Source of the DNA: a virus | Lineage: Duplodnaviria; Heunggongvirae; Uroviricota; Caudoviricetes | Length of the DNA stretch: 26,478 bases | IMG/VR virus record: IMGVR_UViG_2721755724_000002 | Direction: 5' to 3' (one strand) | In this document: positions 1,788 through 24,926 of the stretch, in pieces | Numbering within the stretch: the first letter of the stretch is position 1 | Layout of the letters: the number at the start of each line of letters is the position of its first letter | Program-made: the position numbers and the translations under genes | The notes under the pieces: model-generated | Seen by the model: the letters and a program-made list of their open reading frames with translations, nothing else | Database searches by the model: none | Told to the model about the DNA's origin: nothing

Positions 1788-3245
1788 TTAGGAGCGCCAA
1801 AAAAAACCTGAAAACAATATAATAACAGGATAAATTTCAAGGCGACCAAGAATCATAGCTATGCACATTAAATATTTTGCAATGTCATTAAGCACTCCGA
1901 ATGACGATGCAGTAGCCCCAAAACCTAATCCCATATTATTAATACATGCAGCCACTGTTGCAAATGATGTAAGAAAATCATATCCCATACCATTTAACAC
2001 CAGTATAAAAAACACCGTGAAGAGAGTATAAAGAAAAAAGAAACTCCATACAGACCTCATTACACGATCTGTAACTATCTTCCCTCCTACATTTACACTC
2101 AACAACGCTCTGGGATGAGAAAGCTGATTTATCTCGTGTTTGCTTTGTTTGAAAAGTATAAGAAATCGAAGTGACTTAATTCCACCACAAGTTGAACCTA
2201 TACATCCCCCAAAGAAACTTGACGACAGCAAAAACACTATCGTGTGCGTGGGCCAGTTTGCATAATCCTGCGTAGCTAAACCATTATCAGTGAGCATGGA
2301 GCTGGCAAGAAAAAACGAATGAATAAAACTTCCATGCAAGTCATACATACCTATATGCCAGACCTGGAAAGAGGTAACAATGATCACCCCTAAGGCTATT
2401 AACAGAAAGAAACGAAGTTCAATATCTCTGATTAAAGGTTTTATCGTTTTCCTGCTAATAACAATATACCAAAGAGTGAAGTTGAAAGCCGATAGCAGGG
2501 AAAAAGAACCAGCCACCAGCTCAACCAAATAGTTATTAAAATATCCGATACTCTCGCTATGAGTTGAGAAACCACCAAGCGAAACTGTGGAAATCCCGTG
2601 ACAAATAGCATCAAACAAAGGCATTCCTGCAAGTCTATAACAGACAATACAAGCAATACCTAATAAAGAATAAGTTATCCACAGTGTCCGTGACGTATCG
2701 GCCAGGCGGGGAGTGAGTTTGTCATCCTTAAATGGCCCCGGCATTTCTGACTGATAAAGCTTTGCACCACCAATACCCAATAATGGCAATACAGCAACCG
2801 CCAGAACAATAACTCCTAAACCACCTATAAAATTTAACTGTGACCGATAGTACAAATATGCCCGAGGTAATGAACTAACATCATCAATTACAGTTGCTCC
2901 TGTTGTTGTTATTCCAGAAACCCCTTCAAACAGAGCATCAATGAACGTTAAATTAAGTTCTGAGTCAATCCATAAAGGGAATGCACTAATAACAGAAAAC
3001 AAAATCCAAAACATTACAATTATAATAAACCCATCACGGGTACGTAATTGAATGCCAGATTTCTTAGTTGTATACCACGCTCCGCCACCAATGCAAAAAA
3101 ACATAACGAAAGTTATAAAGAAAACGAACAGGCTTTTTTCTTTATAAAACAATGCTACAACCATTGGTGGCAACATTGAAAGACTATAGAGCCAAACCAG
3201 AAACCCACACATATGAGTAACAACTCTTACATGAGATGTATTCAT
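1788..3245 (-). CDS. trkG: TrkG/TrkH-family potassium uptake membrane protein
   Basis: Polytopic membrane protein with TrkH-type repeats; AT-rich gene, as for Rac trkG. Track ORF starts at TTG 3263; first ATG (MNTSHVRVV) at 3245 gives 485 aa. Confidence 0.85.
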   Translation of the reverse strand: MNTSHVRVVTHMCGFLVWLYSLSMLPPMVVALFYKEKSLFVFFITFVMFFCIGGGAWYTTKKSGIQLRTRDGFIIIVMFWILFSVISAFPLWIDSELNLTFIDALFEGVSGITTTGATVIDDVSSLPRAYLYYRSQLNFIGGLGVIVLAVAVLPLLGIGGAKLYQSEMPGPFKDDKLTPRLADTSRTLWITYSLLGIACIVCYRLAGMPLFDAICHGISTVSLGGFSTHSESIGYFNNYLVELVAGSFSLLSAFNFTLWYIVISRKTIKPLIRDIELRFFLLIALGVIIVTSFQVWHIGMYDLHGSFIHSFFLASSMLTDNGLATQDYANWPTHTIVFLLSSSFFGGCIGSTCGGIKSLRFLILFKQSKHEINQLSHPRALLSVNVGGKIVTDRVMRSVWSFFFLYTLFTVFFILVLNGMGYDFLTSFATVAACINNMGLGFGATASSFGVLNDIAKYLMCIAMILGRLEIYPVIILFSGFFWRS

Positions 3246-3382
3246 ATCTAAATATTCTTTCAATTATAACCACCTTGCTGCAATATTATGATTATACTGT
3301 ATAAAATTTAACTCCTCTTAGATCTTACTTCACTGTTCCTTATGAAACAATCATCAAAATGAATCATATTGTAGTTAAGATT

Positions 3383-3847
3383 TTACTTTAAACACTGTTC
3401 GGTTATGTATTGCTGAGCACCTTCAAGTTGGGCCTGCATCATTACCAGTCGTTCCCGGAGGGTGAAATAATCCCGTTCAGCGGTGTCTGCCAGTCGGGGG
3501 GAGGCTGCATTATCCACGCCGGAGGCGGTGGTGGCTTCACGCACTGACTGACAGACTGCTTTGATGTGCAACCGACGACGACCAGCGGCAACATCATCAC
3601 GCAGAGCATCATTTTCAGCTTTCGCATTAGCTAACTCCTTCGTGTATTTTTCATCCAGTGCAGCAACATCACGCTGGCGCATCTGCATGTCAGTAATTGC
3701 CGCGTTCGCCAGCTTCAGTTCTCTGGCATTTTTGTCGCGCTGGGCTTTGTAGGTAATGGCGTTATCACGGTAATGATTAACAGCCCATGACAGGCAGACG
3801 ATGATGCAGATAACCAGAGCGGAGATAATCGCGGTTACTCTGTTCAT
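3383..3847 (-). CDS. rzpR: Rz-type inner-membrane spanin (i-spanin)
   Basis: N-terminal TM helix then coiled-coil-like periplasmic region ([20 protein letters not shown]); ATG at 3847 overlaps endolysin stop (ATGA); Rz1 embedded in +1 frame. Track ORF starts at GTG 3859. Confidence 0.8.
3442..3627 (-). CDS. rzoR: Rz1-type outer-membrane lipoprotein spanin (o-spanin), embedded in Rz
   Basis: 61-aa ORF inside Rz in another frame; signal peptide with lipobox LVVVGC and proline-rich mature part ([15 protein letters not shown]), typical of Rz1. Confidence 0.7.
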
Positions 3848-4341
3848 TGCTGACCCCACAAACAGATTTCACGCTCAATCTCACGACGAGTCATGAGACC
3901 TTTCCATTGCTTACCGCCAGCATATGTCCAGCGACGTAGCTGATCACATGCGCCTTTGATATCGCCCTGGTTTATTTTGCGAAGAAGCGTCGATGTTCTG
4001 AAATTGCCAGCACCCACGTTGTAAACGAATGAGTAAAGAGCGCCGCGCGTTGTTTCCGGTATATCGACTTCGATGTACGGGTTAATTTGTCTGGCGACAG
4101 TGGCAAGGTCTTTATTCAAGAGTGCTTTGCATTCTGCTTTGGTATACGTTTTACCGAGCATGATGTCTTTTCCTGTATGCCCGTGACATACAGTCCATAC
4201 ACCAACAATATCTTTGTATGGTATGTAGCTGACACCTTCCAGACCATCGTTACCACTTGGGCCAGTGATTAACACTGATGCTATAGCAATTGCTCCGCCA
4301 CCAATAGCAGCAGCAACGGCTTTTCGTAATGATGGAGGCAT
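3844..4341 (-). CDS. Phage lysozyme (SAR endolysin, phage 21 R-like)
   Basis: 165 aa; N-terminal signal-anchor-release segment ([18 protein letters not shown]) then lysozyme catalytic region ([10 protein letters not shown]...VCHGHTG); start overlaps holin stop (TAATG). Confidence 0.85.
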
Positions 4342-4556
4342 TATTCACCTCTCGCAGCCTTGCGCTTATCTTCTTTAATCTTGAAATAAAGGTTTGTCAG
4401 GTACGTCAGCAGGCCAAAAACCAGACTACCCAGCACACCGATTGCAGCCCACTGTGACGGAGTTACTCTATCGAGCAACTGTAAAAACCAGTAGCCAGCA
4501 CTGCCTGCGGAGGTGCCATAGGCGACACCCGTTGTTAACTTATCCATGGATTTCAT
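4341..4556 (-). CDS. Class II pinholin (phage 21 S-like) with dual-start motif
   Basis: [25 protein letters not shown]...[15 protein letters not shown], two TM segments, charged C-terminus; ATG at 4556 (GAGGTGG Shine-Dalgarno) and second ATG at 4547 resemble the S21 antiholin/holin starts. Track ORF extends upstream to 4649 without support. Confidence 0.8.
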
Positions 4557-4941
4557 AACCCCCACCTCGCAGATGCGGGCGCTGTGTAATGGAAACAAAA
4601 AATGGCCACCAGCGGCCCGTAAAAAACACCCCGTCAAAAGCACCGGCATCCGCAGATGCCCTTTGCGTGGCGTTATTTGATGCGCGCCAGATGTGGCGCA
4701 AAGAAATGAAATAAGACTTATCGAAAATTAAGGTTAATTTGATGATTTAAACCACTTCTGAAGCTTAGTAGTATGAACATGTCCCCAGAAGGGGGCCAAT
4801 ACTTATGATTCTTCATGGACTTTGTCCCGCGGCGTTAATCCGACGGCCGCGCTTTTTTTGCGCCATATTCATCGCTAACTTACATGGCATTGCCACACGG
4901 GCATTATCAGTGTCCGTGTTTCTTTTTTTAGGGTTCAGAAT

Positions 4942-4967
4942 AAAAAAAACCGCCCGGTGGAGGCGGT
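4942..4967 (-). terminator. Rho-independent terminator (minus strand) downstream of the tRNA pair
   Basis: On the minus strand: stem ACCGCC/GGCGGT (plus 4949-4954/4962-4967), 7-nt loop, then U7 (plus A-run 4942-4948). Confidence 0.5.
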
Positions 4968-5240
4968 AAAGGATGTATTTCCAGGTTTTGCTTAGTATAT
5001 GATTAATCTCAATGTCATTTTTAGCGATGTTTACAACATCGGGATGGCACATCACCGGCCCTGCCAGGAAATACAAAATCTCCACCGATAATGCACCATT
5101 CTGCTGCCGTAAAAAAATCAGCACTGAGGCTACACCTGGCCTCAAATCATAGCCAGAGAACAGAATGCTTTTTCGAAACAACCTGCTCCCACGTAATAAA
5201 AATACGCCAGTGCTGCAATACAATAAGGCTTATTTCAAAT

Positions 5241-5315
<75 letters not shown>

Positions 5316-5318
5316 GCA

Positions 5319-5396
<78 letters not shown>

Positions 5397-5612
5397 ACAG
5401 AACCGCCACCGAGGTATCGAATCTCACACCTACCACTTAAATGATGGTCGGCTCTTCCCGATGAGCAGATGGCGGTGTTCCCTTAATGGGATAGCTGTAT
5501 TCAGTAATCCGTTATTCGAATACACCATCGAAGGAACAAGCGCATTATATACATTCACGATTCGTGTTATTAGCTAATTGCGCACAACACAGCTTCATTT
5601 AACGAAATGCCC

Positions 5613-5647
5613 CCCCAGAAACAACAAAACCCGCTCAATGGCGGGTT
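5613..5647 (-). terminator. Candidate tR'-like terminator downstream of Q (minus strand)
   Basis: On the minus strand: stem AACCCGC/GCGGGTT (plus 5628-5634/5641-5647), loop of 6, then U-rich UUUUGUUGUUUCU; about 85 nt downstream of the Q stop, where lambdoid phages have pR'/tR'. Confidence 0.4.
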
Positions 5648-5730
5648 CTGGTAAAGTTCATGCGCTTGGTTCGCCTCGCGATACAGCTTTGCGAAACATA
5701 CCGGAATTGAAGCAATTTATGCGTAAAAAA

Positions 5731-6273
5731 TCAAGCTATTTTTTGAGCAAATGATTCTCGCATGGGAATATACAGGGCATATTCAGCAACGGCTAACCAA
5801 TTAGCAATTCGCTTTTCGCATGTGCTAAAACACCACTCAGGATGTGCATCATTCAGCAATTCAGCCATTTTACGCTTAGTCATCCCCCTCCCTTCATATC
5901 GTTGCCGGAGGATACAAATCAATCCTGGGTGTTTTGCCAGCACCTCACTTATGACTCTATCAATACATAACGCCTCTGCATCAGTACAATGCGCCAGCCA
6001 GGTCTTTTGCTTGCCATTGATCATCTCTCGCAAAAACGCTTCCAGCTCAGGTTTCTCTATTCCCGCTTTTTTCATCCTGCGCAGGGCTTCATTGACGGCT
6101 GTTTTCGTCAATTTTTTGGATGCCAGCAACTGGTTAAACATATTTCCCGTCTTACCGCCGCCAATATACGACCAGCGCCCCCACATGCGCAGTTTTCCCT
6201 GAATCCAGACACTTTCCAGCGTGGTGAGACGAAGGTGTTCCCCGCTTTTGCCTGTATTTGTTGGGTAAATCAT
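5731..6273 (-). CDS. Putative late-gene antitermination protein Q
   Basis: 180 aa from ATG 6273 with AAGGAAGG Shine-Dalgarno, overlapping the upstream stop (ATGA); contains the W-G-x-W motif (LRMWGRW) seen in Q-like antiterminators; lies immediately upstream of terminator, tRNAs and lysis cassette. Track ORF extends to 6393 without RBS support. Confidence 0.6.
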   Translation of the reverse strand: MIYPTNTGKSGEHLRLTTLESVWIQGKLRMWGRWSYIGGGKTGNMFNQLLASKKLTKTAVNEALRRMKKAGIEKPELEAFLREMINGKQKTWLAHCTDAEALCIDRVISEVLAKHPGLICILRQRYEGRGMTKRKMAELLNDAHPEWCFSTCEKRIANWLAVAEYALYIPMRESFAQKIA

Positions 6274-7731: not shown

Positions 7732-7887
7732 TTACTCCTCAGGTTCGTAAGCTGTGAAGACAGCGACCTCCGTCTGGCCGGTTCGGATTCGTACCTCGCA
7801 GAGGTCTTTCCTCGTTACCAGTGCCGTCACAACGACGGTTAAACAGATGACGATCAGGGCGATTAACATCGCCTTTTGCTGCTTCAT
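7732..7887 (-). CDS. hok: Hok-family type I toxin (host killing membrane peptide)
   Basis: Reverse complement 7887-7732 translates to MKQQKAMLIALIVICLTVVVTALVTRKDLCEVRIRTGQTEVAVFTAYEPEE (51 aa), a Hok/Gef-family sequence; below the 60-aa cutoff of the track. Confidence 0.85.
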   Translation of the reverse strand: MKQQKAMLIALIVICLTVVVTALVTRKDLCEVRIRTGQTEVAVFTAYEPEE

Positions 7888-7945
7888 AGCCTGCTTCTCC
7901 TTGACCTTTTGGTCGGTAAGAGGCTAATCTACGTATGCAAAGCAT
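7739..7945 (-). CDS. mok: Mok-like overlapping reading frame (modulation of killing)
   Basis: 68-aa ORF in another frame starting upstream of hok (ATG 7945) and ending near the hok stop, the arrangement of mok in hok/sok loci. Confidence 0.55.
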   Translation of the reverse strand: MLCIRRLASYRPKGQGEAGYEAAKGDVNRPDRHLFNRRCDGTGNEERPLRGTNPNRPDGGRCLHSLRT

Positions 7946-8099
7946 AGATGTGGCCTCAGATTAATGTTAAGCGTCTTGCCGGACGCGTAATGTTAACTGG
8001 GGCTTTTCTCTATCTGCCTTTGGTGTTCATGCCCGAGGCAGACAGCCTCAAGCACCCGCAGCTATTCTACTTAACTCCCGTTACCTCGCCAATATGAAA

Positions 8100-24538: not shown

Positions 24539-24745
24539 ATGACAAAAACTTTGAGATATGACGATGTTAAACCATGTCCGTTTTGTGGTTGTCCATCAGT
24601 AACGGTGAAAGACATTTCAGGATATTACCGGGCAAAATGCAACGGATGCGAATCCCGAACTGGCTATGGTGGAAGTGAAAAAGAAGCGCTCGAAAGATGG
24701 AATAAACGAACCACTGAAAATATTAATGGAGGCGTTCATGTATAA
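24539..24745 (+). CDS. ralR: Restriction alleviation protein Lar/RalR
   Basis: ATG at 24539; MTKTLRYDDVKPCPFCGCPSVTVKDISGYYRAKCNGCESRTGYGGSEKEALERWNKRT... zinc-ribbon-like, matches Lar as recalled. Confidence 0.8.
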   Translation: MTKTLRYDDVKPCPFCGCPSVTVKDISGYYRAKCNGCESRTGYGGSEKEALERWNKRTTENINGGVHV

Positions 24746-24926
24746 AATTACCGCTACAATTGAAAAGGAAGGTGGCACTCCTACTAACTGGACAAGATAT
24801 TCAAAATCTAAACTAACGAAATCAGAATGCGAAAAAATGCTCTCAGGTAAAAAAGAAGCAGGCGTTTCCAGAGAGCAGAAAGTAAAACTGATAAATTTTA
24901 ATTGCGAGAAACTTCAGTCCTCGTGA
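24738..24926 (+). CDS. ydaC: Small prophage protein YdaC
   Basis: ATG at 24738 with GGAGG Shine-Dalgarno, overlapping the ralR end; MYKITATIEKEGGTPTNWTRYSKSKLTKSECEKMLSGKKEAG... Confidence 0.7.
   Translation: MYKITATIEKEGGTPTNWTRYSKSKLTKSECEKMLSGKKEAGVSREQKVKLINFNCEKLQSS

Follow-up and report, generated by a model that had tools for sequence, protein, structure and literature searches.

What does the stretch between the transfer RNA (tRNA) genes and the lysis genes of a Rac-like prophage encode? The window analyzed here, the whole 26,478-nt stretch of DNA under IMG/VR virus record IMGVR_UViG_2721755724_000002, is a Rac-like lambdoid prophage of Escherichia coli. Its late region has a cargo slot that runs from the tRNAs to the lysis cassette. 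An initial annotation had described this slot as a structured non-coding region that might yield a plus-strand small RNA or else be a vestigial cargo slot, and all the hairpins, T-runs and promoter hexamers that it listed are present in the sequence where it placed them. Our comparison favored the small-RNA reading, since the predicted RNA (4780 to 4859) has the extent of a unit that is conserved in about 130 loci. With moderate confidence we therefore regard positions 4746 to 4859 as a self-contained gene on the plus strand, antisense to phage late transcription, for a predicted non-coding RNA of about 80 nt. Judged from sequence, this prophage small RNA is probably real and unnamed.

The predicted primary RNA spans positions 4780 to 4859 on the plus strand, its 5' end being placed from the -10 hexamer and its 3' end from the U-run. 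It would open with a 5' hairpin (GUCCCC-AGAA-GGGGGC, 4781 to 4796), followed by a 20-nt single-stranded linker (CAAUACUUAUGAUUCUUCAU, 4797 to 4816), a small hairpin (GGACUUUGUCC, folding as GGAC-UUU-GUCC, 4817 to 4827) and a terminator ending in U7 (terminator 1, 4828 to 4859). The linker is unpaired in both the minimum-energy and the centroid folds and is thus a conserved, accessible region and a candidate seed. Terminator 1 consists of the stem CGCGGC(G)/(G)GCCGCG (arms at 4828 to 4833 and 4846 to 4851), the loop UUAAUCCGAC, a C and T7 at 4853 to 4859, and it folds as a 9-bp bulged stem followed by U7; the RNA thus has the Rho-independent terminator (stem 4828 to 4851) with U-tail expected of a small RNA. 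Taken together, terminator 1 and the small hairpin fold at -15.6 kcal/mol, and 6 of 200 shuffles fold equally well. The covariance model of the family matches positions 4775 to 4860 at 103.8 bits. Folding of the 81-nt RNA (4780 to 4860), which the initial annotation had proposed as a check, gave -27.7 kcal/mol for the plus strand (z = -2.28) and -23.7 kcal/mol for the minus strand (z = -1.23).

In the comparison of related loci, 38 distinct promoter-to-terminator sequences were recovered. Among these, the linker, CUUAU(G/U)(A/C)UUCUUCA(U/C)GG, and the small hairpin were almost invariant. The same near-invariance was seen when the loci were gathered with a promoter-only anchor, and the linkers of the prophages differ from one another by single bases. 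The stems of the 5' hairpin and of the terminator vary while the prophage linker is nearly fixed, which is the pattern expected of a seed region. The small hairpin (4817 to 4827) is invariant in all members of the family, including those of E. coli K-12 and Salmonella, and so leaves no covariation to test. Structure and strand were analyzed on 31 distinct sequences (alignment A3). Here 97.5% of the cells in paired columns can pair, compared with 93.8% in shuffles (none of 500 reached the observed value) and 41 to 55% when the partners were slid. One pair of the 5' hairpin (columns 40-50) is divided evenly between C-G and U-A, with 15 sequences each, and another is U-G in 17 and U-A in 14. In terminator 1, 20 sequences have C-G and 11 have U-A at pair 90-103, and pair 91-102 is C-G in 11, U-A in 9 and U-G in 1. 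The types of hairpin, linker and terminator co-occur in many combinations, showing that recombination has shuffled them and that pairing was nonetheless retained. When six diverged members of the family were analyzed with RNAalifold, including a Salmonella copy of 72% identity, five plus-strand hairpins were recovered and seven pairs were changed on both sides.

The same alignment tells the two strands apart. Read on the plus strand, 28 of the 31 distinct sequences pair throughout the 5' hairpin; read on the minus strand, 10 do. This hairpin has a U-G pair in 17 of the 31 sequences. Terminator 2, a second hairpin described below, has G-U pairs on the plus strand, and T-runs lie 3' of both terminator stems on the plus strand only. 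The G-U pairs and the folding energy favor the plus strand. It is very improbable that the hairpins belong instead to a structured leader on the minus-strand transcript of the late or lysis genes, serving for example as processing or stability elements. They form on the minus strand too, and the region lies in the 5' untranslated part of the lysis operon, but on that strand most copies of the 5' hairpin are broken, the G-U pairs of terminator 2 turn into C-A, and the fold is no better than that of shuffles. Moreover, the core-genome and plasmid copies of the family have no lysis operon downstream.

Behind terminator 1, the initial annotation had noted a second, separate plus-strand hairpin with its own T-run. 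Both hairpins are there, but the second one is not independent of the first. It belongs to a second 3' module (4884 to 4929, plus strand) composed of a small hairpin (GGC-AUU-GCC, 4886 to 4894), terminator 2 (4895 to 4919, stem beginning ACACGG) and the T-run TTCTTTTTTT at 4920 to 4929. Terminator 2 and its small hairpin fold at -17.3 kcal/mol (z = -4.74; 0 of 200 shuffles were as good). The alignment of module 1 (CAUGGACUUUGUCC plus terminator 1) with module 2 (CAUGGCAUUGCC plus terminator 2) scores better than 500 of 500 shuffles, and the covariance model found second matches at 4863 to 4927 of the window (E = 0.049) and in three relatives, namely phage SerU-LTIIb (L003, E = 0.0016), a viral contig (L135, E = 0.0035) and a Salmonella plasmid (L147, E = 0.00013). 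Five pairs of module 2 are changed on both sides among the diverged members analyzed with RNAalifold. By sequence, the second hairpin and T-run are a diverged tandem copy of 4815 to 4859. The space between the modules is too short for a promoter, so that module 2 would either serve as a reserve terminator or end a read-through RNA of about 150 nt.

Could the stretch encode a protein instead? The longest open reading frame (ORF) over the unit, measured in 75 distinct versions, follows no pattern, with lengths between 18 and 105 amino acids on the plus strand and between 0 and 136 on the minus strand, and no conserved reading frame was found on either strand in these versions. The ORFs at 4813 to 5223 (minus) and 5091 to 5291 (plus) exist mechanically, and the view of the initial annotation that neither is convincing agrees with this result. 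A type I toxin-antitoxin locus was rejected on the same ground, as a conserved ORF was found on neither strand. On identical sequence, RefSeq (PGAP) annotates a "hypothetical protein," WP_001741616.1, at 4813 to 5124 (minus). Its frame crosses three terminators and is not conserved among the relatives, and from its sequence it is probably a miscall. We consider it barely credible that this protein, a 54-amino-acid plus-strand ORF at 4805 to 4969, or a mini-ORF of seven codons at 4814 to 4837 (AUG GAC UUU GUC CCG CGG CGU UAA) is what the locus encodes. Besides the PGAP coding sequence, the invariance of the stop codon of the mini-ORF, which lies in the terminator loop, speaks for coding. Yet ATG 4805 is ATT in most copies, ATG 4814 is ACG in about a third of them, differences in the length of the T-run shift the frame, and the lengths of the ORFs scatter from 0 to 136 amino acids across the 75 versions. 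The long ORFs cross the three terminators, and none of the four local ORFs had a match in Pfam or PHROG.

Upstream of the predicted RNA lies a putative sigma-70 promoter (4746 to 4774, plus strand), with TTTAAA as -35 hexamer (4746 to 4751), a 17-nt spacer and TAGTAT as -10 hexamer (4769 to 4774). At the position of the latter, other variants have TAATAT, TATGAT (K-12) or TAAAAT (Salmonella), with T1, A2 and T6 kept throughout, and the hexamers and their 17-nt spacer hold their position in four diverged variants. An A/T-rich block, AAGACTTATCGAAAATTAAGGTTAATTT..ATTTAAACC (4712 to 4753, plus strand), lies upstream of the -35 hexamer and overlaps it. This block is nearly invariant in alignments A1 and A3, is kept in the Salmonella plasmid variant, and shares 83% identity with its counterpart in K-12; its sequence is that of a region that may be an UP element or the site of a regulator. 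A "helix" that RNAalifold proposed within the promoter (A3 columns 10-28) was discarded as a linkage artefact, since its covariation only follows the split of the sequences into two clades.

The initial annotation had suggested looking for conservation across Rac-like prophages. The segment is indeed conserved, but not confined to such prophages, and the family has a copy in the core genome. The 3' module (4815 to 4860 of the window) matches one place in 5,353 of 5,426 E. coli genomes, which in K-12 lies between yodB and serU. This K-12 element, like that of the window, is convergent with a tRNA gene (serU) and has the same spacing of the -35 and -10 hexamers. Its small hairpin is identical, its terminator shares 90% identity, and the element scores 72.4 bits with the family covariance model. 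Its promoter (TTTAAA, 17 nt, TATGAT) agrees with 9 of the 12 consensus positions and was called by our scan. It differs in its 5' hairpin and linker, which are unrelated, and in being chromosomal and near-universal rather than prophage-borne. Viral contig L135 has a third version of the 5' part and the Salmonella plasmid a fourth, with other stems and linkers at the same place. In these sequences, the promoter block and the 3' module of the family are constant, and the 5' hairpin and linker between them vary. The K-12 element itself (positions 1090 to 1250 of our K-12 locus, L129) has a predicted RNA of about 88 nt, whose start is predicted at about 2,041,118 in U00096.2 coordinates, and is unnamed. 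A search of Rfam 15 and of the full-text literature on yodB or serU together with small RNAs or Hfq found no name for it, and it merits annotation in its own right.

Published data on K-12 bear on transcription at this relative. The serU gene is among the strongest clusters of double-stranded RNA (dsRNA) substrates of RNase III captured with p19 (2,041,159 to 2,041,583) (PMC7373196), and Conway et al. list a minus-strand serU unit with its promoter at 2,041,633 and its terminator at 2,041,144, in a 61-nt convergent overlap with an annotated operon (PMC7373196, Table S1d). From the published coordinates of serU (2,041,492 to 2,041,581), which correspond to L129 1534 to 1623, the left edge of the dsRNA cluster (2,041,159) would map to L129 1201, the first base of AUGGACUUUGUCC, within the small hairpin. 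On the same mapping the serU unit would end at L129 1186, and the implied plus-strand end (1186 + 61 = 1247, about 2,041,205) would be the last T of the homologous T-run. We infer that some plus-strand transcript of K-12 ends at the homologous terminator, while the table does not fix whether it starts at its own promoter or at yodB. These positions suggest that the K-12 hairpin works in both directions.

This raises the question of whether the cassette of the window does no more than terminate transcription. Its hairpins would then separate the tRNA unit, the morons and the lysis genes in the lysogen, in both directions as at serU of K-12, an explanation we hold to be unlikely; equally unlikely, as part of it, the promoter-like hexamers would be silent or yield an unstable by-product without function. 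Stems rich in G+C and followed by a U-run, as in intrinsic terminators, are present on the plus strand at 4828 to 4859 and 4895 to 4929 and on the minus strand at 4967 to 4941. A consensus scan of positions 4300 to 6000 found six terminator-like sites on the two strands, against 1.9 ± 1.4 in shuffles, among them 4895 to 4919 (plus) and 4967 to 4949 (minus); terminator 1 was missed because a simple 6-bp reading leaves a loop of more than 8 nt. This enrichment fits a terminator cassette, as do the weakness of the promoter, the fact that the terminator and the small hairpin are the most conserved parts of the family, and the homologous K-12 hairpin, at which the serU unit and a convergent plus-strand unit both end. 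However, a terminator needs neither a conserved block 110 nt upstream nor a covarying 5' hairpin and an invariant linker, and these extra parts keep a fixed spacing in four variants. In addition, plus-strand T-runs are pointless without plus-strand transcription, and the minus strand already has terminators of its own on both sides of the cassette. On the tRNA side, the scan found a convergent intrinsic terminator (4941 to 4967, minus strand; ACCGCCUCCACCGGGCGGU followed by U8; -11.1 kcal/mol, z = -2.58), with its hairpin at 4967 to 4949 and its T8 corresponding to the A-run at 4942 to 4949 of the plus strand. It closes the tRNA-side transcription unit, and at its position three relatives (L005, L009 and L147) have a hairpin of the same role with a different stem. 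On the lysis side, the scan found two terminator-like hairpins 5' of the holin start (4660 to 4645 and 4617 to 4604, minus strand).

The dsRNA cluster of K-12 also bears on a regulator acting in cis. The plus-strand RNA would act on the perfectly complementary minus-strand RNA, either tRNA read-through or, after induction, the Q-antiterminated late transcript, which we think quite unlikely. Just as unlikely, under the same explanation, its target would lie about 225 to 300 nt upstream of the holin start, and cleavage by RNase III would alter the 3' processing of the tRNA or the amount or timing of the lysis mRNA. In lambda biology, polymerase modified by Q reads through terminators, and an antisense target must therefore exist in lytic growth. 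The antisense position between tRNA-Gly and the holin is kept whichever holin family is present, and the K-12 locus is one of the strongest RNase III dsRNA clusters, with its left edge at the small hairpin of the element (PMC7373196). Action in cis, on the other hand, leaves the sequence unconstrained, whereas the linker hardly varies from one background to another; opposite the core-genome copy there is no late operon, and the site is distant from the holin ribosome-binding site.

The small-RNA gene we favor behaves as a discrete unit in evolution. Comparison of the ~130 loci delimits a cassette at 4672 to 4970, and BLAST against the relatives splits the interval 4560 to 5242 into four blocks, i.e., 4590 to 4677, 4672 to 4954 (the plus-strand module), 4955 to 5029, which is swappable, and 5030 to 5242, which travels with tRNA-Gly. 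In some relatives, genes for TerB and DUF3927 are inserted at about 4672 to 4677, and one locus (L010) cleanly lacks 4712 to 4937. Directly behind the T-run of terminator 1, the 67 distinct 300-nt versions include three alternative continuations that are either unrelated or strongly diverged. Given the insertions on the left and the alternative sequences after the T-run, the promoter-to-terminator unit has sharp recombination boundaries. The place is thus a cargo slot, as the initial annotation had it, in which relatives carry TerB and DUF3927; it is not vestigial, the RNA cassette itself being the cargo.

The setting of this unit is stable. In 127 loci it lies antisense between the holin gene and tRNA-Gly (one locus has no holin match and five have no nearby tRNA), and tRNA-Gly is usually followed by tRNA-Thr. 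The holin beside it is of the EssD type in 36 loci and an unrelated protein of 131 amino acids in about 70, 21 of which also have TerB and DUF3927. The full-length unit is found in 347 of 5,426 complete E. coli genomes (~6%), in more than 110 IMG/VR contigs, in 2 of 50,697 deposited phage records and in the representative of one other species, E. ruysiae. The copy of E. coli W/KO11FL, at 3,366,987 to 3,367,146 of NC_017660.1, is 94% identical. Several of these loci have features of their own. In phage SerU-LTIIb (L003), an LT-IIb enterotoxin prophage, the tRNA-to-holin stretch is partly duplicated (3290 to 3998 and 5001 to 5899), and the small-RNA cassette (5188 to 5272) is present only in the copy adjoining "holin1a." The IncF conjugative plasmid pCFSAN001015 of Salmonella enterica subsp. 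salamae (L147, 1141 to 2384) carries a remnant of the same phage late region, with the blocks of the Q-tRNA spacer, the whole small-RNA cassette and the pre-holin block; this remnant has no tRNA genes and adjoins a gene for an Rpn-family nuclease. In some viral contigs, an additional tRNA gene, for tRNA-Val or tRNA-Tyr, separates the cassette from tRNA-Gly. The block at 4955 to 5029 is replaced by about 160 unrelated nt in L004 to L007, and its versions in the window and in L005 end in an ACCGCC...GGCGG hairpin followed by T8 (minus strand).

How might the cassette work? The weak sigma-70 promoter would start transcription at about 4780, and read-through past terminator 1 would stop at the duplicated 3' module (4884 to 4929), giving the longer form of about 150 nt. 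The minus-strand terminators on both sides (4967 to 4949; 4660 to 4645 and 4617 to 4604) would insulate the cassette from neighboring transcription in the lysogen, so that it would act like a moron that the resident prophage expresses. The promoter may fire and the RNA may be stable, and the U-tail and the U-rich linker may bind Hfq. By analogy with PasA/PasC, AgvB/AsxR and DicF, the RNA may act in trans through pairing of its linker with host or phage mRNAs. On balance, our analysis leans towards a moron-like small-RNA gene of the resident prophage, insulated by terminators on both strands, whose U-tailed terminator and U-rich linker fit a base-pairing RNA that depends on Hfq and acts in trans. 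The trans mode and the cis mode could operate side by side.

Several observations weigh against this reading. The promoter agrees with the consensus at 8 of 12 positions, below the threshold of 9 set for the scan, which therefore did not call it; the initial annotation had rightly termed it weak. The support for a transcript from the prophage copy is comparative. The plus-strand 3' end of K-12 could be that of a long 3' untranslated region of yodB rather than of an RNA with its own promoter, and the hairpin appears to end the serU transcript as well, so that the 3' module may have been selected as a bidirectional terminator. The sequences compared are closely related and form two main clades, which leaves few independent compensatory events, and, as the spurious helix of the promoter (A3 columns 11-27) illustrates, clade linkage by itself can look like covariation. 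The hairpins are nearly strand-symmetric and the strand call depends on a few G-U pairs. Finally, when the linker was run with RNAduplex against 177 start regions of the window, including that of the holin, it gave long, loop-rich duplexes and no interpretable outlier.

The modular make-up of the family invites a further, rather doubtful interpretation, in which the phages took over the chassis of a host small RNA and fitted it with a new targeting sequence, making a two-tier family. The prophage and Salmonella plasmid copies would, just as tentatively, have kept the promoter block and the 3' module of the core copy and carry at least three other versions of the 5' hairpin and linker. If so, a borrowed chassis with the same input and the same protein-binding 3' end would mean a redirected or competing host regulatory circuit in the lysogen.

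Late-region small RNAs of prophages, such as PasA-D, AgvB, AsxR, DicF and IpeX, let a resident phage rewire the expression of its host, and they are under-annotated; in RefSeq the present stretch carries either no annotation or a spurious "hypothetical protein" that spans three terminators. The cassette would enlarge this set of small RNAs by a family that occurs in ~6% of complete E. coli genomes and travels with tRNA-Gly among phages with different lysis modules. If it is expressed, the three natural seed variants on a common chassis are a ready-made experiment on the evolution of a targeting part, and the fixed antisense position before the holin raises a testable link to the control of lysis.

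The genes around the cassette all lie on the minus strand. On the lysis side these are the EssD-type holin gene, the first of the lysis cassette (4341 to 4556, from the ORF list and the RefSeq annotation of an identical stretch), followed by the genes for lysozyme (3844 to 4341), Rz/Rz1 (3383 to 3859) and trkG (1788 to 3263). On the other side, ARAGORN and Rfam identified tRNA-Gly(TCC) (5243 to 5317) and tRNA-Thr(TGT) (5321 to 5396), both convergent with the small-RNA gene, and beyond them lie a tR'-like terminator (5650 to 5625) and a Q-like DUF1133 gene that starts at 5731. In strain 13P484A (L001), 1.2 kb around the cassette is 100% identical to the window, and an IS1 (3653 to 4350 of L001), which the window does not have, lies between the Q-like gene and tRNA-Thr.

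Two flanking segments are structured in their own right. Just before the holin start, about 88 nt (4590 to 4677) form a block that is shared at 78 to 89% identity with phages that have unrelated holins, namely phiP27, SerU-LTIIb and one Actinobacillus phage. The two terminator-like hairpins at 4660 to 4645 and 4617 to 4604 sit inside this block, whose sequence suggests a portable "stop before lysis genes" signal through which only antiterminated polymerase would proceed. Directly 3' of tRNA-Gly, about 100 nt (5110 to 5217, minus strand) is strongly folded, ends in a hairpin with U7 (5145 to 5124) and is conserved along with the tRNAs at 90 to 96% identity. The larger segment 4938 to 5242 (minus) folds with z = -3.16, and 0 of 100 shuffles were as good. 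The stretch at 5110 to 5217 could, from its sequence, be a structured tRNA trailer or a further small RNA.

Does the cassette correspond to a small RNA already described? At the gathering threshold, Rfam 15 found no family in positions 4650 to 4940, including AgvB, AsxR, Esr41, STnc100 and CyaR, and at E ≤ 10 it gave only noise on the element (astro_FSE, 15 bits; tpke11, 17 bits). Over the window, the K-12 locus and four relatives, Rfam 15 recognized only tRNAs, RalA and sok and left the element uncovered. In the window, these are a full-length RalA antitoxin RNA (24744 to 24922, minus; 218 bits) and a sok-type antitoxin RNA (7882 to 8057, minus; 105 bits), both expected in a Rac-like prophage. 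A CyaR_RyeE match at 4943 to 5012 (minus) was set aside, as it scores 23.6 bits against a threshold of 47, consists mostly of the minus-strand terminator and has no usable promoter upstream. A hairpin at 4682 to 4700 was likewise left out of the RNA because, judged by eye, it has mismatches in several relatives. No description of it was found in the full-text literature searched for the RNA or DNA sequence; it may bear a name beyond the texts searched.

AgvB/AsxR, Esr41 and STnc100 resemble the cassette in the type of cargo, being horizontally acquired, Hfq-associated small RNAs carried as lambdoid late-region cargo (PMC4104026). They differ in that their Rfam models gave no match even at E ≤ 10. 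DLP12, a defective lambdoid prophage, encodes the small RNA IpeX immediately 5' of an essD-type lysis cassette. IpeX is co-oriented with nmpC and the late genes, unlike the present antisense cassette; only positions 4560 to 4610 of the window resemble the porin-holin spacer of mEp460-type phages.

The closest analogues, not homologues, are PasA and PasC of enteropathogenic E. coli (EPEC). Identity with PasA, PasC or PasD was rejected both by sequence and by covariance model. Positions 4557 to 5242 of the window gave only chance matches with the PasA locus in blastn, the published PasA core sequence is unrelated, and the covariance model (R1) did not match the PasA and PasC loci (E = 9.3 for L127 and E = 5.4 for L128). 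PasA of EPEC E2348/69 is an Hfq-dependent small RNA confirmed by Northern blot (PMC8550237), and the expression and Hfq dependence of PasA/PasC have been shown by Northern blot and RIL-seq (PMC8550237; doi 10.64898/2026.05.13.724894). The likeness lies in their architecture and setting. PasA is a gene of about 80 nt with its own promoter and terminator in the same slot, antisense to the esterase gene and the holin between which it lies, and, as in the present cassette, a second hairpin and T-run follow its terminator. Both have TerB, a holin-lysozyme cassette and opposite-strand tRNAs as common neighbors, and both form families of variants that share their 3' end and differ in their 5' part. 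The Pas small RNAs, however, are reported to be largely confined to pathogenic lineages, whereas the present family has a copy in the core genome.

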